From Patescibacteria group bacterium (GTDB lineage Bacteria; Patescibacteriota; Microgenomatia; UBA10105; UBA927): DNA of 64,000 nucleotides. The position numbers and the translations under genes are program-made. Under the pieces are notes generated by a model, which did no database searches, was not told the DNA's origin, and saw only the letters and a program-made list of their open reading frames with translations. Positions 28,824 to 51,631 of the stretch are shown here, one piece after another. The DNA lies in assembly GCA_035510735.1 (NCBI GenBank), contig DATKGN010000002.1:3275-67274 (forward strand), in the 5' to 3' direction. Each line of letters begins with the position of its first letter. The stretch's first letter is position 1.

Positions 28824-28841
28824 TACGATACACACCTTGTC

Positions 28842-28867: not shown

Positions 28868-28888
28868 CAAGGCTAAATGAAAAAATGG

Positions 28889-28908
28889 ATTCCCGCCTTC
28901 GCGGGAAT
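28889..28908 (+). other. Perfect hairpin ATTCCCGC-cttc-GCGGGAAT, no U-tract
   Basis: 8-bp perfect stem, 18 nt upstream of the tyrA-pheA fusion gene. Confidence 0.45.
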
Positions 28909-28925
28909 GACAAATACAAAATTAT

Positions 28926-30257
28926 ATGAAAAAAATAAGTATTGTCGGTTTCGGAAGATTCGGAAAAGTCTTATATCGTTTAGTAAAGGACGATTTCGTT
29001 GTCACGGTCTATACCAGAAAACCAATTAATTCAGGAACGGAAATATCACCTAATACAGTATTAACCAATTCCATACAAGATATTTACAAAAGCGATGTCA
29101 TATTTTTCGCTGTTCCGATTGATGCATTTGAAAGCGTCATAAAAGCGCATAAAAAATACTTTATACCGGGACACCTTCTTATTGATGTGTTGTCGGTAAA
29201 GCTGCATCCGCGAAGCGTATTTGAGAAACACCTCAAAGGCAGTAAAACACAGGTTCTGTTAACGCACCCTATGTTCGGGCCTGACAGCAGCCGTAATGGC
29301 TTTGATGGCTTACCCATTATCATGGACCGGTTCAAAGCGGATGAAACGAACTATGTTTTCTGGAAGAATTACTTCACCAATAAACATCTGCATGTTATTG
29401 AGATGTCAGCGCGGGATCATGACAGGCTTGCGGCAAATTCCCAGGGGTTGACGCATTTCGTCGGGCGCTTATTGGATTCCTATGGCCTACGACCGACTCA
29501 AATTGACTCATTAGGTACAAAAAAATTATTGGAAGTCATTGACCAAACGTGTAATGACTCGTGGCAGTTATTTACGAATTTGCAGCATTTTAATCCCTAC
29601 ACCAAACGGATGCGGATGGAACTTGGCGATACGTATGACCGGCTATACAATAAATTATTGCCGAAGCAGCATAATCCGCATTACATAACGTTCGGCATCC
29701 AGGGCGGAAAAGGAAGCTTTAATGAACAGGCGATACACGATTACGTAGAAAAAGAAGAGATTAAGCACTATAGAATCAAATATCTATACACGACAGCCGC
29801 GGTGATGCGTGCGCTCCACACTGGAGAAATCGATTTCGGACAATTCGCTATCCATAATTCGGTGGGTGGGATTGTGGGTGAATCGATTAACGCGATGGCG
29901 GACTACAGATTTACAATCGTAAAAGAGTTCGCTATCAAAATTTCGCATGCACTTATGATCCGGAAGGACGCCACATTAGAGGACGCGACGACAATTATGA
30001 CCCATCCGCAGGTTCTCGCGCAGTGCAAAGCAACGCTTGCCCGAAAGTATCCGCAATTGGCGCAAACGTCAGGGACGGGAATCCTATTGGATCATGCTGT
30101 GGTTGCAAGGCAATTGGGTTGCGGTAAACTACCGAAAGAAATTGCGACCATGGGGAGCAGAATCCTCGCTACGCTTTATGGTTTGAAAATTGTCGAGGTC
30201 AATCTGGAGGACGCCAAGGAAAACTTTACGATCTTTCTCATTGTCACACGCACATAA
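28926..30257 (+). CDS. Fusion protein: prephenate dehydrogenase (TyrA, N-terminal) - prephenate dehydratase (PheA, C-terminal)
   Basis: The N-terminus MKKISIVGFGRFGKV is a Rossmann NAD-binding fold typical of TyrA. From ~residue 255, ITFGIQGGKGSFNEQA...TRFLIV-like begins a PDT domain. Confidence 0.7.
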   Translation: MKKISIVGFGRFGKVLYRLVKDDFVVTVYTRKPINSGTEISPNTVLTNSIQDIYKSDVIFFAVPIDAFESVIKAHKKYFIPGHLLIDVLSVKLHPRSVFEKHLKGSKTQVLLTHPMFGPDSSRNGFDGLPIIMDRFKADETNYVFWKNYFTNKHLHVIEMSARDHDRLAANSQGLTHFVGRLLDSYGLRPTQIDSLGTKKLLEVIDQTCNDSWQLFTNLQHFNPYTKRMRMELGDTYDRLYNKLLPKQHNPHYITFGIQGGKGSFNEQAIHDYVEKEEIKHYRIKYLYTTAAVMRALHTGEIDFGQFAIHNSVGGIVGESINAMADYRFTIVKEFAIKISHALMIRKDATLEDATTIMTHPQVLAQCKATLARKYPQLAQTSGTGILLDHAVVARQLGCGKLPKEIATMGSRILATLYGLKIVEVNLEDAKENFTIFLIVTRT

Positions 30258-36329: not shown

Positions 36330-37073
36330 CTAAGGTGAAAACGGGTCCGAGCGGGTTTCATTCGAAGTCGGAGATATTACAGCTTGCCCTTCGGTTGCGA
36401 CACTGAGAATAGGCATTTTTTCCACCGTTGCAATTATCTGATTTTCTTTCGCGGAAAGAGGCTGTAATTGCGACTCTGTGGCGCCTATAGTGACGGTTAA
36501 GGGTGAATAAAATGCATCCATCCCCATACGCACGGAAATGTTTGATGGGTCTAAAAATGAAATCTCAAAATTTCGGACACGGAAGAACCGTCGGACAGAA
36601 ATTGACTGAGCAAGAAAATCATGTATCTGCTGGTAGTTTCCTACAACGGTTACTTCAAACGGTAAAAGACTCGAACCTATCTGACGTTCCTCATTCGTCA
36701 GTTTTTGAGCCGATTGGCTTGCGATGGATCCTGGTTTGGAAAGCGACACATCCGTAACGGCGACGCCACTTTGTGCAGCAAGTGCATCAAGCGTGGTAAA
36801 AAGCGTCGTTAACGACTTATCAGCAGGGACTGCAGCAATAAGTTGCTGAAGCTGATTTTTATACGTTGCTTCATCTTCGCTGTCGAGAACTGTTACTTTT
36901 GTCTGCAATTGAGCAATACTCTCGGAAAGCGCAACAGAGTCGCTCCGGATCTGAATAATTTTCCCAATGATGGGGATGATCCCGAAAACAGTTCCGAGTA
37001 TCGATATGAGTATCATCGCTCCCGATATACTGATACCCTGATACTTGCGTAAATATTTAGAATAGGGTTGCAT
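36330..37073 (-). CDS. pilO: Type IV pilus assembly protein PilO-like
   Basis: N-terminal TM helix plus coiled-coil, immediately downstream of pilN in the pilMNO arrangement. Confidence 0.6.
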   Translation of the reverse strand: MQPYSKYLRKYQGISISGAMILISILGTVFGIIPIIGKIIQIRSDSVALSESIAQLQTKVTVLDSEDEATYKNQLQQLIAAVPADKSLTTLFTTLDALAAQSGVAVTDVSLSKPGSIASQSAQKLTNEERQIGSSLLPFEVTVVGNYQQIHDFLAQSISVRRFFRVRNFEISFLDPSNISVRMGMDAFYSPLTVTIGATESQLQPLSAKENQIIATVEKMPILSVATEGQAVISPTSNETRSDPFSP

Positions 37074-37078
37074 AGTAA

Positions 37079-37627
37079 TTAAAAAACAGCAAAAAATGTA
37101 ACGGACGCCAGTATACCGCCGTTCGCCTGAATCTGTATTGATGTCAATTGAGGATTTACCAAATGATTGGATTGCGTCTGGGTGATTATCGCATTGACCA
37201 CTTGGAGGAGCGCCTCAAAAGAAGAAACGTTCATTGAAAGTGAAATTTTATCCTGATCATCTACTACGATATCCGTCAGTGACCCAGCTGGTACAAATAT
37301 ATTTATTCTATCAAGCAGGTCAGCCCACGGCCGTTGATTTTGCATGGCGTTCCCGACAATGAACGTACGATTCTTAATAGAGACGAAAAGACCTTCCTTT
37401 TTTGCATCGCCCGTAACTTCATTAATCAAATTCCGTTTTGAGGACTGTAAATTCTGTTTACTTTGATTAAAGAGGATATAGATTACTGCACAGACAAGAC
37501 TCACGCATAGAAATCCGACAACGCCGACATATCCCGTTCGTCTGAGACTGGTTTCGATGGCATCGAGCTGTGGAGACGTACCGGTCTTTGTTCGTATAAG
37601 GTTTATACTACTTTGAAGTGGTGCCAT
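37079..37627 (-). CDS. pilN: Type IV pilus assembly protein PilN
   Basis: N-terminal INLI motif, a single TM helix and its position after pilM. Confidence 0.7.
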   Translation of the reverse strand: MAPLQSSINLIRTKTGTSPQLDAIETSLRRTGYVGVVGFLCVSLVCAVIYILFNQSKQNLQSSKRNLINEVTGDAKKEGLFVSIKNRTFIVGNAMQNQRPWADLLDRINIFVPAGSLTDIVVDDQDKISLSMNVSSFEALLQVVNAIITQTQSNHLVNPQLTSIQIQANGGILASVTFFAVF

Positions 37628-37637
37628 ATGTGGAATA

Positions 37638-38660
37638 TTATTGACGCAGTGCCAAACCTACGGCAATACAGAAATTCGGCCCTTCGGTACTTAAGACGTT
37701 AAACCGCTTATCACGTACGATTCCGATCCAGGGATTTGCCATTTGAACCTCCACATTGATGCTTTCGGCAATATACACGACCATGCCGGGTAAGCGGGCC
37801 GTGCCGCCGCTTAACATAATCGTTTCGACATGCTGATCTTTATATTTCTCCTCATAAAACGCAACCGCGCGTTTCATTTCATTTATAATCGTATCCATGA
37901 TCGGCTTTGTCGCATTCACGATTTTCCCTTCAAGCTTGTCTTTCTGAAGCCCGTAGGTCCGTTTATACTCTTCTCCCTGAGTCATGGTAAAATCTAAATT
38001 CTGAGAGATAGCGCGGGTGATCGCTTCTCCGCCGGCGCTGACTGACCTCGTAAATACTAAAATGCCGCTTCGTAAAATCGCGATGTCTGTCGTTTGAGCG
38101 CCGAGTGAAACAACCATAACGGTCCTGACATTCGGTATGGACCTCGCTATGGCTCTGGAGGTCGCAATAATTTCTGTTTCAGCTGCAATTGCTGTGAGGC
38201 CGGACATCTCTAAAATTGTTAAATACTTATCCATAAGCGCTTTGGGAGCTGCGACCAATAACACCTCCATTTTATTCGTTCCAGTATCTTTGCTCTCCCG
38301 AAGAACCGTAAAATCCACATTTACCTGATCGAGCGGTAACGGAATATATTGCTCCGCCTCCCATTTAATGGCTGAAGTCAGCTCACGCGCAGACAACTGG
38401 GGAACTTCTATCACCCTCGTAAATACTTTCGATTCAGGAAGCGCGATATTCACCTCATGGGATTTAGTGCCGGTATCTTTCACTAATTGTTTCAGTGCAA
38501 CCGACACGGCCTCTAAATCTGCCTGGACCGATGATGTTAAGGCTTTCGGGGGAGTCGGCACGCTTCCAGCAGCCATGAGCGCAATCTGATTTCCTTCTTT
38601 TGCAAATTCAATGAGTTTGATGCTGTGCGAACCTATATCAATGCCGACGGATGTATTCAT
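37638..38660 (-). CDS. pilM: Type IV pilus assembly ATPase-fold protein PilM
   Basis: Actin-like fold starting GIDIGSHSIKLIEF..., ~340 aa. Confidence 0.8.
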   Translation of the reverse strand: MNTSVGIDIGSHSIKLIEFAKEGNQIALMAAGSVPTPPKALTSSVQADLEAVSVALKQLVKDTGTKSHEVNIALPESKVFTRVIEVPQLSARELTSAIKWEAEQYIPLPLDQVNVDFTVLRESKDTGTNKMEVLLVAAPKALMDKYLTILEMSGLTAIAAETEIIATSRAIARSIPNVRTVMVVSLGAQTTDIAILRSGILVFTRSVSAGGEAITRAISQNLDFTMTQGEEYKRTYGLQKDKLEGKIVNATKPIMDTIINEMKRAVAFYEEKYKDQHVETIMLSGGTARLPGMVVYIAESINVEVQMANPWIGIVRDKRFNVLSTEGPNFCIAVGLALRQ

Positions 38661-38716
38661 ATGGGCAGAAAATTTTCAAAAACTTCCTCATATTATATTG
38701 TATATCATTCCCCGGG

Positions 38717-39562
38717 CTACTGCGTTAATGATCCCTGACTGTATAGCGCCGCATCGAAAATTGTAGACGGAGAACGGTATTGTTGATAAACGACAATTTT
38801 CCTGTTCATACCGGTCGTCGTAGTGCCTGTCGATTCTATTCGGTGTCCCTGAAGCGGTAGCTGATTGGTACCCGCGTCAACGGCAATCGTCGCATCGTTA
38901 TAGACCGGTCGGATACGAAGCTCCATTAGCGTATCCGTGAGACGATTTATTCCTAAATCATTAAACGTCAATGTCGCCCTATAATCAGTGCCTGTATTGC
39001 CGCCGCATCCTCCGGAGGCAACTACTGTCGAAAAATTATCCGTTTGTGCACGGTCGCTGCTGGGATCAAATGCAGTATGCGCCACCTGATACGTTCCGTC
39101 GCTTTTTTTATAGAGTAAGGTCACGGCAAGCGCCGGTATCGTCGTCGCATCAGTGTTCCAACAAATATCAATCGATGGCGCATTATACCGGCCCGGATCG
39201 TTAGGATCTTCAATCGGAACATTATTCGCATCGTGATTCACCAGCCACACCGTGCCTGTTGAGCCGCGTTCTACTTTTGTCGGAAACTCAAATACCCCTG
39301 TTGAACTATTAATCGGTGATACTGTGACAGTATATGAAACGCCCGCGGTCAATTCATTTGCGCTATTGCTCGCGCTTTTCAGTGCTTCTTCAACGCCTGC
39401 CTCGGCTGCGCTGAACGCCCGGGATGATTCTACAACCTGGCTCGTTATCGTCGTATCCGTGGTTGTACGGGCAATGAGTGAAAGCGCCACTGTTGTAGCT
39501 ATGGTTAACACAAGAAGCGTTATCAAAACAACCTGACCGCTTGACCGTACAGTACCTTTCAT
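38717..39562 (-). CDS. Pilus-associated protein with N-terminal membrane anchor (PilX-like, Ser/Thr-rich)
   Basis: N-terminal hydrophobic anchor followed by a Thr/Ser-rich secreted domain. Last gene of the minor-pilin block. Confidence 0.4.
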   Translation of the reverse strand: MKGTVRSSGQVVLITLLVLTIATTVALSLIARTTTDTTITSQVVESSRAFSAAEAGVEEALKSASNSANELTAGVSYTVTVSPINSSTGVFEFPTKVERGSTGTVWLVNHDANNVPIEDPNDPGRYNAPSIDICWNTDATTIPALAVTLLYKKSDGTYQVAHTAFDPSSDRAQTDNFSTVVASGGCGGNTGTDYRATLTFNDLGINRLTDTLMELRIRPVYNDATIAVDAGTNQLPLQGHRIESTGTTTTGMNRKIVVYQQYRSPSTIFDAALYSQGSLTQ

Positions 39563-39604
39563 AATCTATTATTATTGTAGAGTCTGATACAAGCTTTGAC
39601 AAGC

Positions 39605-40147
39605 CTAGTTTCTCGGGGAAACTATAGTTTCAAAATTGGTATCTGCATTTTGAAATTGCCCTGACGGCACTCCGGCTTGACTTAACTGAAATTGAATCGA
39701 TATCTTTGACGGTTCGTCCGTATATGACGTACAGAAAAATACGAGTGTACTGTCGTTACAGGTCGTGCCTCCGAGTGAAACATTTGAGCTTGTCAGGAAA
39801 TCCGAAGCTCCCGAGGCAGCGCTCGTTGAGGCAATCCTTGTCACCCCGCTATCGGCAACACACCCGAATGTCGTATCAACCTCGTCAGCGTTTTTAATTT
39901 GCACGTAATTAAGAGTTGTTCCGGCTGGTGAACAATCTGATTCAACGCCCAGAGAATTTCGAATCATCCGCGTCATGCTTTCGACGGCAAAATCACCATT
40001 TTGTTTCACATCCTTTAACAGTTCCGATTTTGTATTTGACCTTGTTGTGGTAAAAAACACCTGGGTAATAAGAATACCGACGGATGCAATAATCGTCATA
40101 GCGACCAAAATTTCTAACAATGTATACCCTTCGCGTGTATGCTTCAT
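39605..40147 (-). CDS. Minor pilin / pseudopilin (class III signal peptide)
   Basis: Prepilin motif MKHTREGYTLLEILVAM (G|YTLLE, Glu+5). Confidence 0.7.
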   Translation of the reverse strand: MKHTREGYTLLEILVAMTIIASVGILITQVFFTTTRSNTKSELLKDVKQNGDFAVESMTRMIRNSLGVESDCSPAGTTLNYVQIKNADEVDTTFGCVADSGVTRIASTSAASGASDFLTSSNVSLGGTTCNDSTLVFFCTSYTDEPSKISIQFQLSQAGVPSGQFQNADTNFETIVSPRN

Positions 40148-40161
40148 ATATATGCGGCCGA

Positions 40162-40626
40162 CTACTTCCACTGTGTAAAATACGTCGTCAGAACGACAGG
40201 ATCGACCAAACTCCCGTCGACGCTGCCAACCGACGCCGTCACAACAGTAACATTTGGATCGGATTCTGACCCTGAAAATTGGATGCTCCGTGAATAAGTT
40301 CCGTCAGACAACACGATATTCCCAACACAATTATTATTAATTTGAGGCGTTAACGTGTTGTTACTGCCCATACAATACTGTCCGCTGTTTGTATCGCGGT
40401 ACGTGGTGAACGTATCCCAGCTATTGTCACGTATCGACCGAGCTGTCTCCAAAGCCTCCTGGGCAAATTTGACCGCTTCGGTCTTTTCACGGTCAACTCT
40501 TGCCGCTTTAAGCGATGCGGTCGTTCCCGCAATAAGTCCTGTTGACAAGAGGACGACAATGCCGATAACGACAATCGCCTCAACGAGTGTTTGTCCAAAC
40601 GAGTCGCGGGACCAAAATTTGTTCAT
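40162..40626 (-). CDS. Minor pilin / pseudopilin
   Basis: Prepilin-like N-terminus MNKFWSRDSFGQTLVEAIVVIGIV (G|QTLVE, Glu+5). Confidence 0.6.
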   Translation of the reverse strand: MNKFWSRDSFGQTLVEAIVVIGIVVLLSTGLIAGTTASLKAARVDREKTEAVKFAQEALETARSIRDNSWDTFTTYRDTNSGQYCMGSNNTLTPQINNNCVGNIVLSDGTYSRSIQFSGSESDPNVTVVTASVGSVDGSLVDPVVLTTYFTQWK

Positions 40627-40639
40627 ATTGTTACAACCA

Positions 40640-41104
40640 TTACTGCAATCCCAGATCACTTATGTCGCCGCTGGGACTTACGTCAAGCACATATTGTTTT
40701 GCGAATCCTACCAATGTTATCGTCGCGACAGCGGGAAGTGTCGTTCCACGGGAGAGTACGTTAAACGTTATGGTTGGAGGTGGTGGAGAGAACATAACAC
40801 CTGCTGGTAACGTCACATTTTGCGCAGCACCCTCCAATCCCTCAGGATTGCACAGCGCCCGTATTGAATAGTCTGAAGCATCGGTAAATGTCACAGAATA
40901 GCCTGAAAGTTGCGTACATTGTGAGGGTTTGTCTCCGGACATTGCTTTTGACTGTGCGAACCGAAAGTTATTTTTCAGCGTTAAAGCAGCCTGTTTTAAT
41001 ACCTGAATATCATTGTATGAATTATAATTTGCGATAATAAGGCCGGTTAAAAGCAGACCGATTGCAATAGAAACAACCAATTCTATAAGGGTAAATCCCT
41101 TCAT
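40640..41104 (-). CDS. Minor pilin / pseudopilin
   Basis: MKGFTLIELVVSIAIGLLL is a class III signal peptide. Confidence 0.75.
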   Translation of the reverse strand: MKGFTLIELVVSIAIGLLLTGLIIANYNSYNDIQVLKQAALTLKNNFRFAQSKAMSGDKPSQCTQLSGYSVTFTDASDYSIRALCNPEGLEGAAQNVTLPAGVMFSPPPPTITFNVLSRGTTLPAVATITLVGFAKQYVLDVSPSGDISDLGLQ

Positions 41105-41595
41105 GGATTTTTGAGGTAATAATTACAATTCTGATTCAGATCACTCGGATCACAGGAGTTTGAGATAAGATTCGTGCTGTTGGTCCCGTCGCATGCCGCT
41201 GTTGCTTCCAGACATCCACAGACACAATACCCATAATAGGAAGATCCTGACAATGTTTCGGCTTTATAATAATACGTCGCAGATGACCCGAGCGGATCGA
41301 CCGGAACTGCGGGCAAATAACTGTTCACCAAACCGGTGGTTTTATCTCCGGTATCAAGTCCGGATGCACTATTCCAATTTCCGCTTCCGACTGCCGGATA
41401 CGCTGCATAATCAGACCGATACATTTCAAGAGCTGATCGTATTTGTTCTAAATCGCTTTTTCTTTTCACATCACGGGACCGCTTATTGACTGCAGAATAG
41501 GAGACAACACCAATGACGGTCAGAACCGCAATGATGGTCGCCGTCACCAGAAGCTCAAGGAGGGTAAAACCGGATGTGTGGTTACGCTTTTCCAT
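41101..41595 (-). CDS. Minor pilin / pseudopilin
   Basis: MEKRNHTSGFTLLELLVTATIIAVL is a prepilin motif. Confidence 0.75.
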   Translation of the reverse strand: MEKRNHTSGFTLLELLVTATIIAVLTVIGVVSYSAVNKRSRDVKRKSDLEQIRSALEMYRSDYAAYPAVGSGNWNSASGLDTGDKTTGLVNSYLPAVPVDPLGSSATYYYKAETLSGSSYYGYCVCGCLEATAACDGTNSTNLISNSCDPSDLNQNCNYYLKNP

Positions 41596-41612
41596 ACTAT
41601 ATAACCCCCATG

Positions 41613-42044
41613 TTATTGCAAATTACTCACACAAAAATATGAATCACCGGATTTTCCCGACTCATAGACGCAACTTGTGTTAGAAGCATTTCCTGAAGTG
41701 TTTCCTGCCGGTTCCAGCTGTCCACAAAAACAATAATTGGTCACAGAAGGACAGGAAAACGTATAGTCCAATGCCGGATGTTTGGGATCCTGCGGTAAAC
41801 CGGCCGGCAAATACTTTGTCGTTGTGGTTAATGCGTCACACGTGCCATTTGGTGGATATTGACCATTATTATCCGCATAATACTGTTCTATCGCGCTTTG
41901 TGCCGCTTTCATATCGCCCTGACGACGGGCATTTCTGGATTTTATCTGCGCCTGTGCATAGGAGGCCACACCTATCGATATAAGAATGCCGATGATGGCG
42001 ATAACGATGAGAAGTTCGATTAACGTAAACGCACTTTTTTTCAT
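41613..42044 (-). CDS. Pilin-like protein (type IV pilin family)
   Basis: MKKSAFTLIELLIVIAIIGILISI is a prepilin motif; Cys pairs in the C-terminal region. The ORF-track start 42104 is an extension. Confidence 0.75.
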   Translation of the reverse strand: MKKSAFTLIELLIVIAIIGILISIGVASYAQAQIKSRNARRQGDMKAAQSAIEQYYADNNGQYPPNGTCDALTTTTKYLPAGLPQDPKHPALDYTFSCPSVTNYCFCGQLEPAGNTSGNASNTSCVYESGKSGDSYFCVSNLQ

Positions 42045-42048
42045 ATAG

Positions 42049-42798
42049 TTATAAATATATACTCCACAAATGCAACAGCTGTGTATGGAATACAAACACA
42101 ACACCTGTAGCGCCTATAAGAAACGGACCAAATGCAATCTTGCTTTTGAGTGTTTTTCGACCTCTAGCAATCAGTATGACACCGACCATTGCACCAGTCA
42201 AGAATGCGATATAGAGCGCTATAATAGCTTCAGGAAACCCAAGTAATAATCCGAGAACAAAGGACAATTTAACATCACCGAACCCGATTCCGCGGCCGTG
42301 AGTTAACAGCCATAACAGATAAAAAAAGAACATAATCCCAAAGGCCATTCCCAGATGAATCAGCGTATATATACCTATAGATTGAGATGTCAACAGTAAC
42401 CCGATGCCAATAATCGCGGTCACAATCATGCTGTCGGGTATTATTTGAAATTTGTAATCTGCAACGATCATAACCACAAACGTTGAATAAATAATACAGC
42501 TTGCAATAATAGACAGCGCCCCTGATTGATACGCAGCGATGCTGACAAATCCAATTGCAGTTACTACTTCTATAATCGGATATTGCCAGGATAATTTTTT
42601 GTCGCACCGCCTGCACGCCCCGACCTGAAGAACAAATGAAATAACCGGAACGAGTTCATACCAACGAAGCGTTTTTTTGCAATAATCACAATGAGAACGC
42701 CCCCAAAGGACATTCTGTCCTTTGGGCAAACGATCCGCAAGCACGTTGAGAAAAGATCCGACAAGAAGACCTAAAATGAACACGTATAAAAGGACCAT
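42049..42798 (-). CDS. pilD: Prepilin peptidase (A24 family)
   Basis: Zinc-binding CDYC...CRRC tetracysteine, multiple TM helices and conserved Asp regions. Confidence 0.85.
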   Translation of the reverse strand: MVLLYVFILGLLVGSFLNVLADRLPKGQNVLWGRSHCDYCKKTLRWYELVPVISFVLQVGACRRCDKKLSWQYPIIEVVTAIGFVSIAAYQSGALSIIASCIIYSTFVVMIVADYKFQIIPDSMIVTAIIGIGLLLTSQSIGIYTLIHLGMAFGIMFFFYLLWLLTHGRGIGFGDVKLSFVLGLLLGFPEAIIALYIAFLTGAMVGVILIARGRKTLKSKIAFGPFLIGATGVVFVFHTQLLHLWSIYL

Positions 42799-42895
42799 AT
42801 AGTATCAGTGTCGATGGTCTTGTGCCGACTGTCAAGCTCGGGAAAAGAGTACGTTATCCCTTGCGCCGATACTATAAACCGGCTACACTTTTGTC

Positions 42896-45070
42896 ATGAA
42901 ATTCCGTAGGGGGGATGTGCTTGCATTACTCGTGATTGTTATCATTATCGGCATATTTTTCATCCCGCTTTTTTACCCGATGGCGAAACTGGTCGTCACG
43001 CCGGATATCGGTGAAAGTGATTCGCTTTTGAATTTTGAATCCAAATATTTACTATGGCAGGGATTACAGCACAATCAAATTCCACTTTGGACCGAAACCA
43101 TGGGCGGAGGATTTCCACTATACGCAACTGGAGCGCTCGGCGTATTTTTTCTACCCAACCTCGTATTGTATAAATTATTTGATGCCGTGTCTGCGTATAA
43201 TCTTACGATCGTCGTATCATTTGTAACGCTCGCGTGGGGGACGTATCTCTGGCTCAGACTGTTGCGGCACAGTCAGTTCGCATCATTTTTCGGTGCTATG
43301 ACGCTCGCATTATCGGGCTATATGATCGTCCAAATTCCCCACAATACGGTTATCCAATCACTCAGTATCTTCCCGTTAGTATGTATATTTGTACTATTAT
43401 TAGTGAGAAAAAACTCCTGGATCTACTCAGGTCTATTGGCTTTTACCATAGGAGAGCAAATCCTTATTGGATTTCCGCAAACGGTATTTATTACGCTGCT
43501 TTTTGCCACAGCCTATGTTGTTTGGCTTCTGAAATCAGTTGAGGAGAGGGTGGGAATAACCGTAAAATACATTGTTGCATGCATCCTAGGTTTCGGAATC
43601 TCAGCAATTCAGTTGTTGCCTTCCCGCGAATTTCTATCCACCGTTGCAAACGGAACCGGATTTTCCCTACCCGATGCAACATTTTACTCATACCCACTTG
43701 CTCACCTAAAAACACTTCTTGACCCGTTTCTATTAGGCAATCCTAAATACGGTACCTATCCAACGTATATTCAGTTTTCTGGAAGTCTTTTTTGGGAAAA
43801 TACGGCGTATATCGGCATCATCCCCTTGATTCTTATGGCGGCAGCCCTCGTTATCGCTAAAGCGAAGAAAACCAAAAAGAACGTTTTTTCCGTCTCATCG
43901 GATGTACTCTTTTATGTTGCGATGACGGCAATTGCTTTTCTTTTGATGACGGGGAGTCATTCGCCATTGTATCTTGTCTATTCGTTTTGGCCATTCAATA
44001 TTTTCCGCGTACCTTCGAGATTTATATGGGTATTTATCGTCGGGCTTGTTCTCCTGAGCGTTGCGGCATTCGATTACATCAAAACGACAGTGAAGGGAAA
44101 TCGCATGATATCTGCCATGCTTATCTGTATTATCGGGATCCATATATTTCAGATTATTGTCATCTGGAGAGGATATCACGCGATAGAACCCGCAGGTACG
44201 TGGATATCAAAGCCGACACTCGCAAATCTCGTACCGCCCCATAACCGCATCTATACGATCGGCGCCGAACAGGCGCACGATAACATATTTTTCACCAAAG
44301 GCTGGATCGACATGAAGCCGTACATCATTCTTCAAAACATGCTCACGCCTGACAGAAGCGCGCTCTGGAATATTGCCAATGTCGATGAAAAAGTTGGCAG
44401 ATTTCTCAAACGATCGCTTATTGTGGACGACTATCTCTCAACTACTATAACGGAATCAACACATGAAGCAACAGTGAGTGCGACCGGTGAAAAATTATTA
44501 AATATTATCGCCATATCAGACCTCATAAGCGCCCTGCCGCTCACTCAATCCGGCCTGACACAAAACGCCATGTTATCGTATAAAAACGGCGCCATTACCC
44601 TTTACACCAATCCGAACGCCCCTGCGCGTATCTATTTAGCAACACGACCGGTTCTTGCATCGACTGCCGAAGACGCCTTAGGAGCCATAACTGCCGTTTC
44701 ATTTATACCTGGATCATCCGTCATTGTCGAAAGACCGATCAAACTCAGGGGCAGCGGAAACGTTGGGATACTCCGTATAAGCAAGTGGCAGGATGAGGAT
44801 ATTGTTATTCACGTCAACAAAAATACGCGGAGCTCAATTCTCGTTTACGCAGATTCCTATTTCCCCGGATGGATCGCAACCATAGACGGTAAACAAACGC
44901 AAATTATTCCGGTCAATATAAACCAAAAAGGAGTAATTGTGTCGCAGGGTGATCACATCATTCATCTGTATTATGCACCCGGCAGCCTTAAACAGGGCGC
45001 GATTATATCAGCTATCTCAATTCTATTAACCGTTATTGTAATGGCGTTTGCTCATTTTTTACCAGAGTAG
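42896..45070 (+). CDS. YfhO-family GT-C membrane glycosyltransferase
   Basis: 724 aa polytopic protein. The N-terminal ...HNQIPLWTETMGGGFPLYATGALGVFFLPN... fits the YfhO family (PF09586-like). Embedded in the pilus locus and convergent with the DUF2723 gene (3' ends overlap 45033-45070). Confidence 0.6.
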   Translation: MKFRRGDVLALLVIVIIIGIFFIPLFYPMAKLVVTPDIGESDSLLNFESKYLLWQGLQHNQIPLWTETMGGGFPLYATGALGVFFLPNLVLYKLFDAVSAYNLTIVVSFVTLAWGTYLWLRLLRHSQFASFFGAMTLALSGYMIVQIPHNTVIQSLSIFPLVCIFVLLLVRKNSWIYSGLLAFTIGEQILIGFPQTVFITLLFATAYVVWLLKSVEERVGITVKYIVACILGFGISAIQLLPSREFLSTVANGTGFSLPDATFYSYPLAHLKTLLDPFLLGNPKYGTYPTYIQFSGSLFWENTAYIGIIPLILMAAALVIAKAKKTKKNVFSVSSDVLFYVAMTAIAFLLMTGSHSPLYLVYSFWPFNIFRVPSRFIWVFIVGLVLLSVAAFDYIKTTVKGNRMISAMLICIIGIHIFQIIVIWRGYHAIEPAGTWISKPTLANLVPPHNRIYTIGAEQAHDNIFFTKGWIDMKPYIILQNMLTPDRSALWNIANVDEKVGRFLKRSLIVDDYLSTTITESTHEATVSATGEKLLNIIAISDLISALPLTQSGLTQNAMLSYKNGAITLYTNPNAPARIYLATRPVLASTAEDALGAITAVSFIPGSSVIVERPIKLRGSGNVGILRISKWQDEDIVIHVNKNTRSSILVYADSYFPGWIATIDGKQTQIIPVNINQKGVIVSQGDHIIHLYYAPGSLKQGAIISAISILLTVIVMAFAHFLPE

Positions 45071-47006
45071 CATATTCATCAAATAATTTTTTTGCGCTAC
45101 CCTTATCCTTTAAACAATCCCGATATGTCGTCGCTTCATCAAAGATTATTTGTTTATCCTGTGTGAACGAAACTTTTTTTGCTTCCTCAAATGATTGAAT
45201 TGCGTTTTGACATTCTTTCAGTTCCAATTCGCTAATACCTTTATCTTTGAGAGCCGTAGCCGTGTCTGAGTCTCCGCCATACGCGAGTGCAGCAATAAAT
45301 TGACCCTTCGCTGTCATAAAATCACCGCCGCGTAACAGTGTCTCCCCAAATGAAATCCTTGCTGCCTCATAGACATTTCTGACATCTGAGAGCATGAGAT
45401 GATTATAACGGGATAGAATACCTGCTGTCGGATTATGTGCCGTTTTCCAGAAACGTACATTGGTATCACGCATAACTTGGGTGCTCGGTAATCGATCTTT
45501 GGACACAAGCTCATACACAATCCCATAGGGCACCCAATACCAGGAGGAGCCAATTGAATATTTTGTGTATGAAAATAGACGAGTTTTCGCGGCATTGAGT
45601 ATAAGAAATTCCGGCAAAAATGAGGGGGACGCAAGAGGCGGCATCGGAAGGGAGGGATAATTACGATGAACGATTTGTTGATAATCCCCATAGGTGAGGC
45701 GGCTGCCATGAAGTACGACAATATCGCTTCGGAAATGTTCCACATACCGTACATATTGCGTTGTGAAAAGAACGGTATCACGATCCAAAAGAAGCACGCT
45801 GCCGTAGGGCAAATCCGCCAAAACATCATGCCCCAAATTCTCTGCGGTCCTATCGTTTGCGTAACCGGTAAATTTCAAAAGAGTAATGGTCAGAAGCGTG
45901 AATGTAAACATAAAGCACAAACATATAAACCCATTCGTTAAAATGGTATGAAATCGGTAGGTTCTCGTCAAAGACACAATATGATCGACGACAAACGAAA
46001 ATCCGATTCCCGCTCCTATCGCAATAATAACGTATGACGGCAGTAAAAACCGTTCAAACGTCCCAAGCGTGAAGTGGCTGATGAGCGGGAAACTTGCGTA
46101 AAAAAGAAACACCGGCCCCATACCCGCTAACGAAAGTATAAAGAGCCAAAAGACGTGTCGGTTCTTTTGCCATAATGAAACAAATCCGACTACCATAAAA
46201 CCCAACCCAAACCATTTGAAATCTTCAAAAAGATATTGAACGAATGCCTGTAATTCCAAAAACCGCTGAAACGGCAATTGCCCGTATGCGCCACTTGATT
46301 GAAACGTGCCGTAATCCGCCCGCGTCACGAGCTTTATAACATTGGTAATACTCGTTGCACTATCCCAAATAATCATTGAGTGTCCGTGAGTTGCCAAAAA
46401 GATATAGAGGTAGGGGAGTAATCCGCTAATAAAAAAAAGGGCGACCCATAGGACAGATATACGTTTCAGGTGTTTTCTCTCAAGCCACAAAAAATAGGCG
46501 ATCGCGGGGGTCAGAAACAATATAACCTGGTGATGAGTGAGTGATAAACCGCCGATAAAACTCAAAAGGTAAAACGTCTGTAATCGTCCGGATTCCTGCC
46601 ACCTGATGAGAAGCAAAAGCAACACAACGACGAATGCATCAAGGAGTGCGAATACCTCAGGGGTAATGCTATATAAAAAAAAGAGATAATTACCAAGGAT
46701 GAGGAGTGATGCAAATATGCCGGCTATGCGGCTTCGTGTCATCCTGACAACGAGTACATATACGATAGCTATAACAACTGCATGCGGGACAGAAGATAAT
46801 AGCCCGACGCGCCAGCTCACCGTAAAGACTGGAATACGGCTTGTTAACCAGCCCAAAAATGTATAAAACGGATAACCCGGAGGATGAGCAACACCGAACG
46901 TTGACGCCGCAGTCACTATATCGCCACTATCGCCTGCGGGTATACCCTGCGATTGAAATAATAGAAATAGAGCTACGCTTATGAAACCTAAAAGTGTCGC
47001 GATCAT
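45033..47006 (-). CDS. DUF2723/TMEM260-like GT-C protein O-glycosyltransferase with C-terminal TPR-like soluble domain
   Basis: The N-terminal hallmark GIPAGDSGDIVTAASTFGVAHPPGYPFYTFLGWL is the DUF2723 signature. ~11 TM helices, then a ~200-aa soluble alpha-helical tail. Starts 32 nt downstream of pilA on the same strand. Confidence 0.6.
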   Translation of the reverse strand: MIATLLGFISVALFLLFQSQGIPAGDSGDIVTAASTFGVAHPPGYPFYTFLGWLTSRIPVFTVSWRVGLLSSVPHAVVIAIVYVLVVRMTRSRIAGIFASLLILGNYLFFLYSITPEVFALLDAFVVVLLLLLIRWQESGRLQTFYLLSFIGGLSLTHHQVILFLTPAIAYFLWLERKHLKRISVLWVALFFISGLLPYLYIFLATHGHSMIIWDSATSITNVIKLVTRADYGTFQSSGAYGQLPFQRFLELQAFVQYLFEDFKWFGLGFMVVGFVSLWQKNRHVFWLFILSLAGMGPVFLFYASFPLISHFTLGTFERFLLPSYVIIAIGAGIGFSFVVDHIVSLTRTYRFHTILTNGFICLCFMFTFTLLTITLLKFTGYANDRTAENLGHDVLADLPYGSVLLLDRDTVLFTTQYVRYVEHFRSDIVVLHGSRLTYGDYQQIVHRNYPSLPMPPLASPSFLPEFLILNAAKTRLFSYTKYSIGSSWYWVPYGIVYELVSKDRLPSTQVMRDTNVRFWKTAHNPTAGILSRYNHLMLSDVRNVYEAARISFGETLLRGGDFMTAKGQFIAALAYGGDSDTATALKDKGISELELKECQNAIQSFEEAKKVSFTQDKQIIFDEATTYRDCLKDKGSAKKLFDEYATLVKNEQTPLQ

Positions 47007-47038
47007 TCACTATGCCCGTCTCAGGCAGGATGCAAATC

Positions 47039-47566
47039 TTACTGGACACAGAAATAACAGGGGCTAGTCCCTCCGGATGCATTGGCGCTTGTATCTGATT
47101 TACAATATCCCTGGGCCGGACTACTCCCATCCTTATTATACTGGGTATACCCGTCAACTTGAAAGCTCTTCGATTGGGGCTCATAGCAAACGATGATGCT
47201 ATCAGCAGATGTCGAGTTCACGAAAATCTGTCCGAGATTTGCGGTCCCCGCCAATTCCATAAATCCCGTCTTTAATTCCCCCCCGCCAATGAGTAAATTT
47301 ACCGCATCAGTCATGGTATTAAGCTGGGTTGCTGTAGCCAGACCCGTTCCGCCCCAGGGTAATACACCTTTATTCGCGTAATACCGAAGTGCCGCATTAT
47401 AAAACTCGGATACGGTATTTTTGGTTGAAGTATCACGGCCTTTTTTCAATTGTTCAAACGGGTCAATCGTCGCTAAAAGTCCGACAGCAAGTGCACCAAG
47501 AAGAGCGATAACGATAAGAAGTTCAATAAGTGTAAAACCTTTACGGAACTGAGCAGTGTTTTTCAT
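47039..47566 (-). CDS. pilA: Major type IVa pilin
   Basis: MKNTAQFRKGFTLIELLIVIALLGALAVGLLA has G|F cleavage and Glu+5. C-terminal Cys pairs and a Ser/Thr-rich C-terminal region. First gene after pilC with its own promoter-like TTGACA upstream. Confidence 0.85.
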   Translation of the reverse strand: MKNTAQFRKGFTLIELLIVIALLGALAVGLLATIDPFEQLKKGRDTSTKNTVSEFYNAALRYYANKGVLPWGGTGLATATQLNTMTDAVNLLIGGGELKTGFMELAGTANLGQIFVNSTSADSIIVCYEPQSKSFQVDGYTQYNKDGSSPAQGYCKSDTSANASGGTSPCYFCVQ

Positions 47567-47632
47567 AAAATAATACCTCTATCTATGTGTTTATCATCTT
47601 CAAAGAGGGGTTGTCAAGCACCGGAAAAATCA

Positions 47633-48844
47633 TTACTTGAACTGACTCGTCAGATTGTAAATCGGTGTGATAACAGAGATGACGATAAATCCCACGCCGA
47701 CGCCCAAAAAGACCATAATAATGGGCTCGATTGCCGTCGTGAGGCCCTTCACAAGATGCTCAGATTCGGATTCAAAATATTTGGACAATTTAAGAAGGGT
47801 ATCATCAAGCCTGCCGGTCTCTTCACCGACTTTCATCATCTGGGATACAATCGTGGGGAATACGTCATATTGCGCGAACGTATCACCCAGCGGAAACCCC
47901 TTTTCAACCTTTTTAGCAATTTCTGATATTGCATTCCGGAAAACCACGTTATCAAGTGAATCCCGCAGAATGCGTAAACCCTCTAATATATGTATGCCTG
48001 ATGCCACAAGCATTCCAAGCGTCCGCGTGAATTCAACGAGCATTATTTTCTTCTGCAGTTCGCCGAAAAGCGGCACTTTTAATATCAGGGTGTCAACAAT
48101 GAGTTGACCTTCGGGAGTCTTACGCCACGCGCGGAAAGCCGCAACCACACCAATTCCGCCGAAAATCATGAGCCACCACCAATGGACGAAAAATCCCGAT
48201 GTCGCCATAAGAATTTTCGTCGACATCGGTAAATCGATATTGAAGTCCTTATACAAATCAGTCAGTTTCGGAACGACAACTGTCATCATGATAAACACGA
48301 CAACCGCCATACCGATAAGAATAATAACCGGATAAATCATCGCACCCTGTACTTTTCCGTTGAATTCCCGCTGGGACTCAAGTATATCGGCGAGCCGCGC
48401 AAGCACACGGTCCATGGTGCCTGAGGATTCCCCGGCCCGAACAAGGGCAATATAGGTCGTACTAAACATGGCAGGATATTTCGACAATGCGTCAGCGAGC
48501 GTCCCGCCACTCACTATCTGATGTTCAACATCCTGCAACATCGCAATAAATATTTTATTGGTCGACTGTGTACGAAGAATTGTAAGGGCCTCGGGGAGCG
48601 ACAAGCCGGCAACCATCATGGTCGCAAGTTGTCTTGTAAAGTTCACGATGTCATTAAATCCAACGCGCTGAAACCGCTCGGTGAGGCCGGCAAACGACAT
48701 CTGTTCATTTGACTGAGTAAGCCCGATCACAAAAAGCTGTTTCTCATGGAGGAGCCTGGACGCAGTAGTTTCATTGGGTGCTTCAACCAAGCCGGTCAGA
48801 ATTTTTCCGTCAAGTCCCCTCGCTTTGTAGTGAAATAACGCCAT
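47633..48844 (-). CDS. pilC: Type IV pilus inner-membrane platform protein PilC
   Basis: GspF/PilC family with two repeated T2SSF domains; 403 aa. Confidence 0.85.
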   Translation of the reverse strand: MALFHYKARGLDGKILTGLVEAPNETTASRLLHEKQLFVIGLTQSNEQMSFAGLTERFQRVGFNDIVNFTRQLATMMVAGLSLPEALTILRTQSTNKIFIAMLQDVEHQIVSGGTLADALSKYPAMFSTTYIALVRAGESSGTMDRVLARLADILESQREFNGKVQGAMIYPVIILIGMAVVVFIMMTVVVPKLTDLYKDFNIDLPMSTKILMATSGFFVHWWWLMIFGGIGVVAAFRAWRKTPEGQLIVDTLILKVPLFGELQKKIMLVEFTRTLGMLVASGIHILEGLRILRDSLDNVVFRNAISEIAKKVEKGFPLGDTFAQYDVFPTIVSQMMKVGEETGRLDDTLLKLSKYFESESEHLVKGLTTAIEPIIMVFLGVGVGFIVISVITPIYNLTSQFK

Positions 48845-48854
48845 ACACGCCTCG

Positions 48855-49907
48855 CTATAGTTTTAATATGCGTCCTAATTCCTCAGGATGGACGGAGTAG
48901 GATATTGCCATTTCAACGCTTATTTTTCCTTCTTTCACTGCATTTGCAAGTGCTGTTTCAAGCGGCATCATCCCAAGTTCAGCGGAGGTTTGAATAATAT
49001 TATCGATAAGATGCGTTTTACCGTCCCGTATCGTCGTCCGTATGGCAGGCGTTCCGGTCATAATTTCTCCGACCACGATCCGCCCTCCCGAAATGGCAGG
49101 TATGAGCCGAAGCGACAACACGCCTTCGATTACCGTTGCAAGTTGTAGGCGGACCTGAATCTGCTGATTTTCCGGAAACACGTCAACGATACGGTCAACC
49201 GTTTGCGCTGCCGAGTTCGTGTGAAGCGTCGCAAAGACCAAGTGACCGGTCTCAGCAATCGTGAGCGCCGCCTGAATGGTCTCAAGATCCCGCATCTCCC
49301 CGATAAGAACAACATCAGGGTCTTCCCGAAGCACACTCCGGAGCGCTATGTTCCACGAGTGACTATCCTGATGCATCTCACGCTGAGAGATAATAGAGAG
49401 TCCCTTTGGGTAAATATATTCAATCGGATCCTCAATGGTTACAATATGATGGGCTTTTGTCTCGTTGATCTCATTTATAATAGAAGCGAGTGTCGTTGAT
49501 TTACCATGGCCAGTCGGTCCAGTAACTAAGATAAATCCCTGCCTGAGTTTCGCAAAATCATGACAAATAGAAGGCAGACCGAGCTGATCGATCGTCCGAA
49601 TCGTATTGGGGATAAGCCGGAAGTCGGCGGCAATTGAGCCTTTCTGGTAGTACACATTCGCCCGAAATCGGCCCGTGTCCGCGTCGATTGAAAAATCAAC
49701 TTCCTTATTCGTGAGCAGGAGCTCTTTTTGTGCAGAGTTAAGAATCTGATAAATAAGCGCCTCTGTATCCTCTCTAGTTAGCGTCTGGGACCCCGCAACA
49801 GGCGCCAATTTTCCGTCGACACGGAGCATCGGAGGATACCCGAAGATCAGATGTAAATCCGAGGCTTTGAGCCGCATTGTTTCCGCAAATAGTTGGTGTA
49901 TATCCAT
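48855..49907 (-). CDS. pilT: Type IV pilus retraction ATPase PilT
   Basis: Walker A VTGPTGHGKSTTLASIINEIN, Asp box and His box; 350 aa. Confidence 0.85.
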   Translation of the reverse strand: MDIHQLFAETMRLKASDLHLIFGYPPMLRVDGKLAPVAGSQTLTREDTEALIYQILNSAQKELLLTNKEVDFSIDADTGRFRANVYYQKGSIAADFRLIPNTIRTIDQLGLPSICHDFAKLRQGFILVTGPTGHGKSTTLASIINEINETKAHHIVTIEDPIEYIYPKGLSIISQREMHQDSHSWNIALRSVLREDPDVVLIGEMRDLETIQAALTIAETGHLVFATLHTNSAAQTVDRIVDVFPENQQIQVRLQLATVIEGVLSLRLIPAISGGRIVVGEIMTGTPAIRTTIRDGKTHLIDNIIQTSAELGMMPLETALANAVKEGKISVEMAISYSVHPEELGRILKL

Positions 49908-49909
49908 AG

Positions 49910-51631
49910 TTAATCCTGCGCGACGCGCAACACTTCCTCTATCGACGTTAACCCCTCAAGCGCCTTCATATACCCGTCCTGTTTCATAGTCATCATACCC
50001 TCCTCAACCGCCTGAGTCTCAATCTCGGTATTGGATGCGCGCTTCAATACCAGTTTACCTATCGCATCGGAAACGGGGAACACCTCAAAAATTCCGAGGC
50101 GTCCGTAATACATCGAACCCCCGCAGGTCTGACACGACTGCCCGTTCAGTGTCCCTTTTCCACGATACAGCTTCATCACGCGGTCAGCGGGTATTAACGG
50201 CCCTAACACTTTACGGATATCTGCTACCACTGGCTCTTCCGGCGTATATTCCTCCTTACACTGCGGACAGACTTTCCTCGCGATTCGTTGACCGACAATT
50301 CCCGTGAGCGCTGATGTCACAAGAAACGGTTCGGCCCCGAGGTCGATAAGACGGGGGATAGCGCCTGATGCATTATTCGTATGCAGTGTAGAAAACACCA
50401 AATGTCCGGTAAGCGCAGCCTGAATGGCAAGCTCTGTCGTTTCCCGATCGCGGATTTCTCCGACCAGAATAATGTTCGGGTCTTGCCGCAGAAAAGACCG
50501 CAAACCGGTTGCGAACGTCAATCCCGCCTGTTGATTAATCTGGACCTGGTTGACGCCTGATATCTGATACTCAACCGGGTCCTCAAGCGTCATGATATTC
50601 ACTTTCGAGTTATTTAATTTTGACAGAACCGAATAGAGCGTCGTCGTTTTACCGGAGCCGGTAGGGCCGGTCACAAGTATGATGCCGTGAGGCTTCATAA
50701 TACACGACTCGAGATTTTTAAGAGCCAGACCCCGGAGCCCTAAATCGTTAAGTGTGGGAATTCCGCCGGATTTTTTGAGAAGCCGCATAACGATCTTTTC
50801 TCCGTTGACCGTCGGCAATGTCGAGACACGGAGATCAACCTCCTGATCTCCCATCTTAAAATTGAAGCGGCCATCCTGAGGCACACGCTTTTCATCTATC
50901 TTCATGTTGCCTAAAATTTTTATACGGGAAACGACGGCGTCATGGAGTCGTTTCGGGAGCACTAACCGCTCCTGAAGAATACCGTCAACGCGATAACGAA
51001 TTCTCGTATCGCCGTCCTGCGGCTCAATATGAATATCTGACGCCCGAAGCTGCATCGCCTGCTCGAGTGTTGCCGATACGATCTGAGCAATAGGCGCTTC
51101 ACGAATTACTTCACCGAGACGGCCTGCTTCATACGTCTTAATCTCCGATGTCTCAGTTTCCTTAAGAGCAGCAGTCACGTCTTCACCAAGATTCTGCGTA
51201 TAGGATGTATCGATTGCCGCAAGGATATCATCTTTAACGCCCATAAATGCTCTGATCGTTTTGCCTGATTTTTTCTCCAAAAATTCAATGACCTGAAAGT
51301 CGAGAGGATCAAGCATCGCAACGGACAATTCATTGGTCTGGTTGTCAAACTGAAAGGGGAGAAGCGTATACCGGCGGATCACGGGTTCAGGAATGTAGCT
51401 CACAATATCCGGTGCAATCGCCCGGCCTGCAAGCGTTATAAACGGGATACCCAGTGATTTTGCGCGGGCTTTGGCAAAATCAAGATCACTGATCACGTGC
51501 TTCTTTCGAAGAATATCCTCTACTGACTCGCCGCTTGAAAGTGATTGGGTCATGACACTGTCCGCTTCCGCTTGACTTAAACGGCGGTCAGTGACAAGAA
51601 TAGCTAAAATTTCCTGGGCAGTACCGGGCAT
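49910..51631 (-). CDS. pilB: Type IV pilus extension ATPase PilB
   Basis: GspE/PilB family with N-terminal GSPII domain, Walker A VTGPTGSGKTTTLYS and the tetracysteine CPQC...CQTC. Confidence 0.85.
   Translation of the reverse strand: MPGTAQEILAILVTDRRLSQAEADSVMTQSLSSGESVEDILRKKHVISDLDFAKARAKSLGIPFITLAGRAIAPDIVSYIPEPVIRRYTLLPFQFDNQTNELSVAMLDPLDFQVIEFLEKKSGKTIRAFMGVKDDILAAIDTSYTQNLGEDVTAALKETETSEIKTYEAGRLGEVIREAPIAQIVSATLEQAMQLRASDIHIEPQDGDTRIRYRVDGILQERLVLPKRLHDAVVSRIKILGNMKIDEKRVPQDGRFNFKMGDQEVDLRVSTLPTVNGEKIVMRLLKKSGGIPTLNDLGLRGLALKNLESCIMKPHGIILVTGPTGSGKTTTLYSVLSKLNNSKVNIMTLEDPVEYQISGVNQVQINQQAGLTFATGLRSFLRQDPNIILVGEIRDRETTELAIQAALTGHLVFSTLHTNNASGAIPRLIDLGAEPFLVTSALTGIVGQRIARKVCPQCKEEYTPEEPVVADIRKVLGPLIPADRVMKLYRGKGTLNGQSCQTCGGSMYYGRLGIFEVFPVSDAIGKLVLKRASNTEIETQAVEEGMMTMKQDGYMKALEGLTSIEEVLRVAQD

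Follow-up and report, generated by a model that had tools for sequence, protein, structure and literature searches.

Accessory glycosyltransferase genes linked to pilin genes are already known. In Pseudomonas aeruginosa strains belonging to group IV, the gene directly downstream of pilA encodes TfpW, a 646-amino-acid (aa) glycosyltransferase of the GT-C type with 11 transmembrane (TM) helices and C-terminal tetratricopeptide repeats (TPR), which takes D-arabinofuranose from a polyprenyl-phosphate-linked monosaccharide and places it on pilin Ser/Thr residues at the outer face of the membrane (bioRxiv 10.1101/2020.04.19.049825). Here we describe a gene in the same position—encoding a DUF2723/TMEM260-like protein of glycosyltransferase family GT117—in the type IV pilus locus of a Patescibacteria group bacterium (Microgenomatia; UBA10105; UBA927), together with a convergent gene for a YfhO-family GT-C protein. 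Both lie in a stretch of 64,000 nt (GCA_035510735.1, contig DATKGN010000002.1, positions 3,275–67,274 of the forward strand), hereafter the window, to which all coordinates refer unless another locus is named.

GT117 has one characterised member, human TMEM260, the loss of which leads to the heart–kidney syndrome SHDRA. A D52A variant of TMEM260 is expressed normally and does not restore O-mannosylation of IPT domains; the study reporting this is the only paper we found that mentions DUF2723, and it notes ‘distant homologs in bacteria’ without assigning them a function (PMC10214176). Our literature searches found neither a bacterial function for GT117/DUF2723 nor a link between DUF2723 or TMEM260 and pilins. 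Within the YfhO family, PgtC2 and PgfM1 are streptococcal protein O-glycosyltransferases that act on Ser/Thr-rich regions outside the cytoplasm (PMC12041528). Among relatives of our organism, the type IV pili of the cultivated Saccharibacteria aid host binding and twitching motility, and O-glycosylation of their pilins has been predicted in silico, with the enzyme unnamed (PMC11623550).

An earlier note on this DNA, hereafter the original prediction, had proposed that the DUF2723 and YfhO proteins form a two-enzyme module for pilin O-glycosylation. We put at roughly 60% the probability that the GT117 enzyme encoded after pilA is an O-glycosyltransferase acting outside the cytoplasmic membrane on the major pilin and perhaps on the minor ones too. 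The evidence comes from the conservation of the gene pair, from the family membership and predicted structure of the two enzymes and from the pilin itself.

Conservation of the pilA–DUF2723 gene pair

Conservation of the adjacency in related genomes had been named in the original prediction as one of the observations on which the proposal would stand or fall; this one came out clearly in its favour, and the adjacency recurs in genomes and metagenomes alike. On the enzyme side, species-representative genomes were scanned for DUF2723 genes, giving 80 loci: 36 of Patescibacteria type (L001–L030, L032, L034, L044–L046 and L051) and 44 from other phyla. A prepilin gene lies directly upstream of the DUF2723 gene, on the same strand, in 29 of the 36 Patescibacteria-type loci and in none of the 44 others. 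This arrangement spans loci labelled Gottesmanbacteria, Woesebacteria and Levyibacteriota, with enzyme identity as low as 26%, and the pair is kept despite an inversion of pilB-pilT-pilC in four loci (L020, L024, L044, L046). PilA orthologues at 36–63% identity hold the same position in related loci.

Type IV pilus genes occur within about 6 kb of DUF2723 in 35 of the 36 loci, including four of the five in which DUF2723 is not adjacent to pilA (L021, L022, L027, L032, L051). In two further loci, both labelled Curtissbacteria, DUF2723 is separated from the pilin gene by one to three others; in L023 the intervening gene encodes another GT-C protein, of the PMT_2 type. The corresponding space in L018 (5813–9277 of that locus) holds genes for two proteins with several TM segments and no Pfam match, 432 and 443 aa long, and for an S-adenosylmethionine-dependent methyltransferase; additional modification enzymes may be encoded here. 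In L105, DUF2723 is followed by a gene for a relative of the 432-aa protein.

On the pilin side, metagenome contigs were compared with a PilA alignment, yielding 80 independent loci, 71 of them with enough sequence downstream of pilA. The gene directly following pilA is DUF2723 in 28 of these, pilD in 25, a second pilin in 13 and another gene in five; two of those five carry DUF2723 about 1 kb further downstream. The DUF2723 gene is therefore a variable pilin accessory cassette occupying the slot between pilA and pilD, which is also how Pseudomonas pilin accessory genes behave.

Outside the Patescibacteria, two proteobacterial loci place GT117 genes near pilus regulators. A gammaproteobacterial metagenome-assembled genome (MAG; L075:6982–19640, JAURNY010000009) carries, in order, pilS, pilR, GT117, a gene for a 526-aa membrane protein, a type IVa pilin gene (PF00114), a TPR-sulfotransferase gene, a second pilin gene, a gene for a 622-aa membrane protein and a GT2-like match seen by tblastn only; the loop motif of its GT117 protein reads VLEDDALF...GVAHPPGYP. 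The second locus (L161:5010–9965) runs sucCD, pilS, pilR, GT117 and has TPR/GT41 and GT2 genes no more than 8 kb away. Given GT117 genes beside pilS-pilR and pilin genes in these two loci, the link between GT117 and pili may be wider than the Patescibacteria.

The two glycosyltransferases and the candidate acceptor

The gene directly after pilA (45033..47006, minus strand) encodes a 657-aa protein, and the DUF2723/TMEM260-like family named in the original prediction is the right one. It matches PF11028 (TMEM260-like) with 76.4 bits against a cut-off of 24.2 (E = 3.1e-21), as well as PMT_2 and, weakly, TPR_16 (4e-4); PF11028 is present in all DUF2723 homologues among the matches listed. A recorded protein from a MAG labelled ‘Patescibacteria group bacterium’ is identical to it, and the nearest named relatives are Gottesmanbacteria. 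A profile built from the protein and its relatives (alignment A1, 19 sequences) aligns query residues 6–465 with residues 32–492 of the solved chain of human TMEM260 (9rql) at E = 4.6e-63, pairing AGDSGD with the GGDSGE of TMEM260. The hidden Markov model (HMM) alignment places the first extracytoplasmic loop motif at residues 21–50 (46857..46946, minus strand)—the N-terminal signature, present just as it had been quoted—and identifies D26 (46929–46931, minus strand) as the equivalent of the TMEM260 catalytic D52. D26, G28, D29 and the HPPGYP motif are invariant across A1.

The AlphaFold2 (AF2) model of the protein (pLDDT 84, pTM 0.80) combines a membrane module of several helices with an alpha/beta domain and, at the C-terminus, TPR-like repeats, and Foldseek matches it to the GT-C enzymes STT3, PglB, EmbA/B, AftA and DPY19. 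The repeats cover residues ~540–652 (45051..45389, minus strand), as judged from the TPR_16 match, from TPR proteins in the PDB matching residues 550–620 and from helix pairs in the AF2 model, and they form the presumed acceptor-recognition domain. On every sequence and structure criterion applied, homology of the 657-aa protein to TMEM260/GT117 is genuine, and activity is predicted; the invariant catalytic Asp and loop-1 motif argue that it is an active enzyme.

The convergent gene (42896..45070, plus strand) encodes a 724-aa protein whose assignment to the YfhO family is likewise confirmed, by PF09586 (56.8 bits, cut-off 28.5; matched by 16 of 17 orthologues) and by a GT-C fold in an AF2 model computed from an alignment of database homologues (pLDDT 91.2, pTM 0.91). 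Foldseek matches include AftD (9e-9), STT3, PglB, DPY19 and ArnT. Sequence searches of the PDB with this protein gave no match, and similarity to the C-termini of the NCBIfam models PgfM1/M2 is weak (22 bits against cut-offs of 1400–1500). Its first loop reads TPDxGxSD, with D42 invariant and D37 conserved in at least 90% of sequences; the model and homology would put this loop on the outer face of the membrane. Both proteins are thus GT-C glycosyltransferases with intact catalytic-loop aspartates and predicted activity.

A second GT-C gene stands beside DUF2723 in most loci, and its type differs by lineage. YfhO accompanies DUF2723 in loci labelled Gottesman-, Woese- and Curtissbacteria, mostly convergent and overlapping it at the 3′ end, though in one case co-directional (L087). 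Several of the more distant loci, one labelled Levyibacteriota, have a PMT_2-type GT-C of 382–399 aa instead of YfhO. In L019, L024 and L029, pilD comes directly after DUF2723. Since the second enzyme is YfhO-type, PMT_2-type or absent depending on lineage, it is DUF2723 that constantly partners pilA, whereas the second GT-C can be exchanged.

Two loci contain composite genes. In L034 (9899–12958), a 1019-aa open reading frame (ORF) follows pilA; its N-terminal part matches DUF2723 (PF11028, with a tblastn match to position 11512), while the remainder sits where a ~390-aa PMT_2-type GT-C is a separate downstream gene in L020, L025, L026, L044 and L046. The ORF reads as a fusion of DUF2723 with a PMT_2-type GT-C. 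A 927-aa protein encoded directly after pilA on another contig (P0184; L163:1020–4352, ERR14098938_14805) joins the first ~250 residues of DUF2723 to YfhO from about residue 72. It may be a real gene fusion, a recombination product or an assembly chimera; coming from a single 4.5-kb Logan contig, and so perhaps an assembly or recombination artefact, it was not used as Rosetta-stone evidence.

The presumed major prepilin, PilA (175 aa; 47039..47566, minus strand), matches N_methyl and TIGR02532 and carries the cleavage motif KG|FTLIELL. Its C-terminus, ...KDGSSPAQGYCKSDTSANASGGTSPCYFCVQ, is Ser/Thr-rich, as the original prediction had said, and ends in the peptide …CKSDTSANASGGTSPCYFCVQ. An alignment of 20 PilA orthologues (A2) delimits a Ser/Thr/Gly-rich loop from Cys155 to Cys170 (CKSDTSANASGGTSPC; 47057..47104, minus strand). 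Of these cysteines, C155 is almost invariant and C170, like C173, fully so, and the loop between the cysteines is variable yet Ser/Thr-rich in all 20 sequences, which suggests this loop as the candidate acceptor region. In the last 45 residues, the Ser+Thr fraction is 0.217 in DUF2723-linked pilins as against 0.146 in pilD-linked and 0.187 in second-pilin-linked ones (Mann-Whitney p = 0.002, uncorrected for phylogeny).

The PilA C-terminal loop also contains an NAS sequon, and the C-terminal ...GNTSGNASNTSC... of the first minor pilin (41613–42104) contains three N-x-S/T sequons, so the sequences would allow that either protein may be N-linked modified.

The pilus locus and the rest of the window

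The pilus locus occupies 36330..51631. Its neighbours are housekeeping genes: trmD at one end, and holB-like, gpm, pgk and gap at the other. The ORF map and Pfam matches agree with the gene order of the original prediction, pilB-pilT-pilC-pilA-DUF2723, on the minus strand: the extension ATPase gene pilB (49910..51631; T2SSE 9e-129 plus MshEN), the retraction ATPase gene pilT (350 aa; 48855..49907; T2SSE 1e-42) and the platform protein gene pilC (47633..48844; T2SSF 2.6e-61, two repeats) precede pilA and DUF2723. Beyond the plus-strand YfhO gene, the minus strand resumes with pilD, encoding the prepilin peptidase (42049..42798; A24_N_bact 3e-31, Peptidase_A24 4e-11), from which YfhO diverges. 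Then come five minor (pseudo)pilin genes within 39605..42104 (41613–42104, 41101–41595, 40640–41104, 40162–40659 and 39605–40171; N_methyl, the match of 40162–40659 falling under the Pfam cut-off), a PilX-like gene (38717..39562; PilX_N 1.3e-3, with the same position kept in related loci), pilM (37638–38660; PilM_2 2.8e-66), a pilN-like gene recognised by position only (37079–37627) and pilO (36330–37073; PilO 1.1e-6), all on the minus strand.

Both spacings reported earlier were reproduced exactly. The pilA stop and the DUF2723 start are 32 nt apart (47007..47038), and we read this intergenic sequence for a terminator or attenuator like those associated with Pseudomonas accessory genes; none was detected, and the intergenic hairpin is weak. 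As the gap is short and has no terminator-like site, co-transcription of pilA and DUF2723 is plausible. The convergent DUF2723 and YfhO genes overlap by 38 bp at their 3′ ends (45033..45070). By ORF coordinates, such an overlap (29–104 nt) is kept in the five relatives checked (L001, L003, L004, L006, L008), a hint that the two units may interfere with each other's transcription or be coupled in termination.

Elsewhere in the window, a contiguous set of chorismate and aromatic amino-acid genes (21382–30257) encodes DAHP synthase, DHQ synthase, dehydroquinase, EPSP synthase, shikimate kinase, shikimate dehydrogenase, chorismate synthase, an aminotransferase and a prephenate dehydrogenase/dehydratase fusion. 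Such a set is unusual for a Patescibacterium, since the group generally has little capacity for amino-acid biosynthesis. At 10315–10755 there is a Trp-repressor-like gene. The first 7,500 positions have a low GC content (0.39 against about 0.46) and include an IS1595-family transposase gene (803–1666), a third GT-C glycosyltransferase gene (PMT/PMT_2; 2908–4416) and genes for two probable secreted proteins with CarboxypepD_reg domains (4413–5705 and 6247–7500); this stretch may be a horizontally acquired surface-glycosylation island. A sortase gene (PF04203; 8238–8801) is consistent with a monoderm-type envelope with covalently anchored surface proteins. Rfam and tRNA scans of the window gave no matches.

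Proposed mechanism, alternatives and known systems

With family membership, fold, conserved catalytic residues and linkage to pilA observed as above, we infer the topology, donor, sugar identity, acceptor site and order of action in a model that rests on homology to TMEM260 and on the TfpW precedent. The DUF2723 enzyme would work at the outer surface of the cytoplasmic membrane, either ahead of pilus assembly or while it proceeds, with loop 1 and D26 facing outward as homology to TMEM260 implies. From a polyprenyl-phosphate-sugar donor it would pass one sugar, mannose or some other hexose being most likely, to Ser/Thr residues of the pilin globular domain, the C-terminal alpha/beta and TPR domain holding the acceptor. 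The YfhO enzyme would attach a further sugar, lengthening the first or placed on other Ser/Thr sites, and a swappable second GT-C (YfhO-type, PMT_2-type or absent) would diversify the pilus glycan. Pilin glycosylation itself is the reading we favour, suggested above all by synteny and also by sequence features and precedent; both the GT117 (TMEM260) and YfhO families include proven protein O-glycosyltransferases.

Several observations weigh on the other side. There is no direct evidence of a glycan on a Patescibacterial pilin, and about 60% of the loci with PilA homologues are without DUF2723, so the pilus does not depend on this enzyme. Pfam searches of the larger ORFs found no polyprenyl-phosphate-sugar synthase (GT2), GtrA-type flippase or sugar-nucleotide gene in the 64-kb window, and tblastn with two GT2-like queries from proteobacterial GT117 loci, a search of limited sensitivity, found no GT2 synthase in the window or the Patescibacteria loci; the donor genes may lie elsewhere in the genome. 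The two-enzyme module originally proposed is supported as regards both GT-C enzymes and their linkage, and is incomplete in having no donor synthase or flippase at the locus. YfhO is on the opposite strand, and its co-regulation with pilA is not evident. The Ser/Thr enrichment of DUF2723-linked pilins is modest and was obtained without phylogenetic control. Ser132 (in PESKS), considered as a specific acceptor, was rejected, being equally conserved in pilins without DUF2723.

One genome on its own proves nothing about placement, as the window contains three GT-C genes in 64 kb and could not by itself show that two of them stand beside pilA for a reason. Chance placement of two among many GT-C genes, without functional meaning, is nevertheless effectively refuted by synteny, the adjacency recurring in 29 of 36 species-level genomes and on 28 independently sampled metagenome contigs, and we give it next to no credence. 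A less easily dismissed alternative is that the two enzymes O-glycosylate many secreted or membrane proteins outside the cytoplasm, in the manner of actinobacterial Pmt or of the streptococcal GtrB/PgtC2 and Pgf pathways; the pilin would then be one abundant client or none, and the pilus locus would offer co-expression only. TMEM260 modifies the IPT domains of several receptors, PgtC2 and PgfM1 modify many Ser/Thr-rich proteins, the donor genes are unlinked and some Patescibacteria DUF2723 genes are not beside pilA (the five non-adjacent loci listed above). Such a system gives no reason, however, for occupation of the exact slot downstream of pilA across lineages at 26–47% identity and through the pilBTC inversion, nor for the presence of pilus genes within about 6 kb in all but one Patescibacteria-type locus, and the pattern of presence and absence between pilA and pilD is that of a pilin accessory gene; we consider it unlikely.

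Less likely again, and in our view quite improbable, is that these proteins modify a non-protein part of the envelope, such as a lipid- or wall-linked glycopolymer or the peptidoglycan where the pilus exits, or that they are non-catalytic accessory factors like TfpY/TfpZ. Precedents exist for each variant: YfhO homologues of Bacillus and Listeria glycosylate teichoic acids, AftD, Emb and AftA, which build arabinan, are among the Foldseek matches, and Pseudomonas has non-enzymatic pilin accessory proteins (PMC11841053). Invariance of the catalytic Asp and of the whole loop-1 motif argues for an active enzyme; the nearest characterised homologue (E = 4.6e-63) is a protein O-mannosyltransferase of the same TPR architecture, and no polymer-synthesis genes were found nearby in the window.

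Pilin O-glycosylation by the GT117 enzyme, if true, would supply the first bacterial function for the family and a simple model system in which the neighbouring pilin is the substrate. A two-enzyme lipid-donor pathway that coats and diversifies the pilus of episymbiotic cells could serve host recognition, DNA uptake or phage evasion, and a pilus glycan varying by lineage would matter for the range of hosts, for resistance to phages and for DNA uptake across a large uncultured radiation. We advance only tentatively the broader idea that bacterial GT117 proteins are dedicated type IV pilin O-glycosyltransferases, that in Microgenomates they stand at the core of a two-enzyme pathway that coats the pilus, and that modifying pilins was perhaps an ancestral bacterial role of the family from which human TMEM260 arose.

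The closest homologue with a known activity is human TMEM260 (CAZy GT117), which shares with the 657-aa protein GT-C homology at the E-value given above, the catalytic Asp, a C-terminal TPR region and about 11 TM helices. It differs in acting in the eukaryotic endoplasmic reticulum with dolichyl-phosphate-mannose as donor and the IPT domains of cMET, RON and plexins as acceptors, and the C-terminal domains are unalignable beyond their TPR-likeness, the alignment ending at about residue 465. For the YfhO protein, the original prediction had looked to glycosylation of teichoic acids, a view too narrow for a family in which streptococcal PgtC2 and PgfM1 are protein O-glycosyltransferases (PMC12041528). 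PgtC2, PgfM1 and PgfM2 share with our protein the YfhO Pfam domain, the GT-C fold and an extracytoplasmic setting, and PgfM1 and PgfM2 cooperate in one pathway; similarity is low, however, no GT2 (PgfS/GtrB) or epimerase gene is adjacent here, and the streptococcal substrates are adhesins, PrsA and others rather than pilins. Bacillus subtilis YfhO/CsbB and Listeria GtlB have the family, a polyprenyl-phosphate-sugar donor and extracytoplasmic transfer in common with the proposed activity, but their acceptor is lipoteichoic or wall teichoic acid, and the pilus locus gives no evidence of teichoic-acid genes. Neither a partner GT2 (CsbB/GtrB/PgfS) nor a small flippase (GtcA/GtrA) accompanies YfhO in the window by Pfam of the larger ORFs.

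Among pilin glycosylation systems, the original prediction had taken pilA-tfpO of P. aeruginosa group I as its model. That comparison holds for position, tfpO lying directly downstream of pilA, with a C-terminal pilin Ser glycosylated; the end result, an O-glycosylated pilus surface, would also be common to TfpO/PilO and Neisseria PglL. These enzymes, unlike ours, belong to the Wzy_C/O-antigen-ligase family and transfer an oligosaccharide en bloc from undecaprenyl diphosphate, and neither the DUF2723 nor the YfhO protein has a Pfam match to Wzy_C. The closest precedent and best functional counterpart is instead pilA-tfpW of group IV P. aeruginosa (Pa5196, PA7).

TfpW and the DUF2723 protein share a gene directly after pilA, a length of about 650 aa, the GT-C type, about 11 TM helices, an acidic loop-1 motif and a C-terminal TPR region. 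TfpW is described as Emb/ArnT-like with DDX in loop 1, whereas loop 1 of the 657-aa protein reads GDSGD. The loop-4 proline motif of TfpW, YX6PFX7P, is absent, by regular expression, from every DUF2723 protein compared, that of the window included; the D-arabinofuranose synthesis genes DprE1/E2 are not in the window; and a homologue search seeded with the gammaproteobacterial GT117 protein of L075 gave no TfpW- or Pseudomonas-named match among the 120 matches listed. Given the missing motif and the lack of a listed match, we treat TfpW and GT117 as distinct families, a separation that relies on the description of TfpW (AAM52060.1) and is not proven. The present locus differs further in having a second GT-C gene and in belonging to a monoderm-like Patescibacterium. 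What is new relative to TfpW and TfpO is thus a pilin-linked accessory glycosyltransferase from different GT-C families, in a different phylum and in a two-enzyme layout; a GT-C glycosyltransferase with TPR placed directly after pilA would then have arisen from different families in distant phyla, by parallel evolution.

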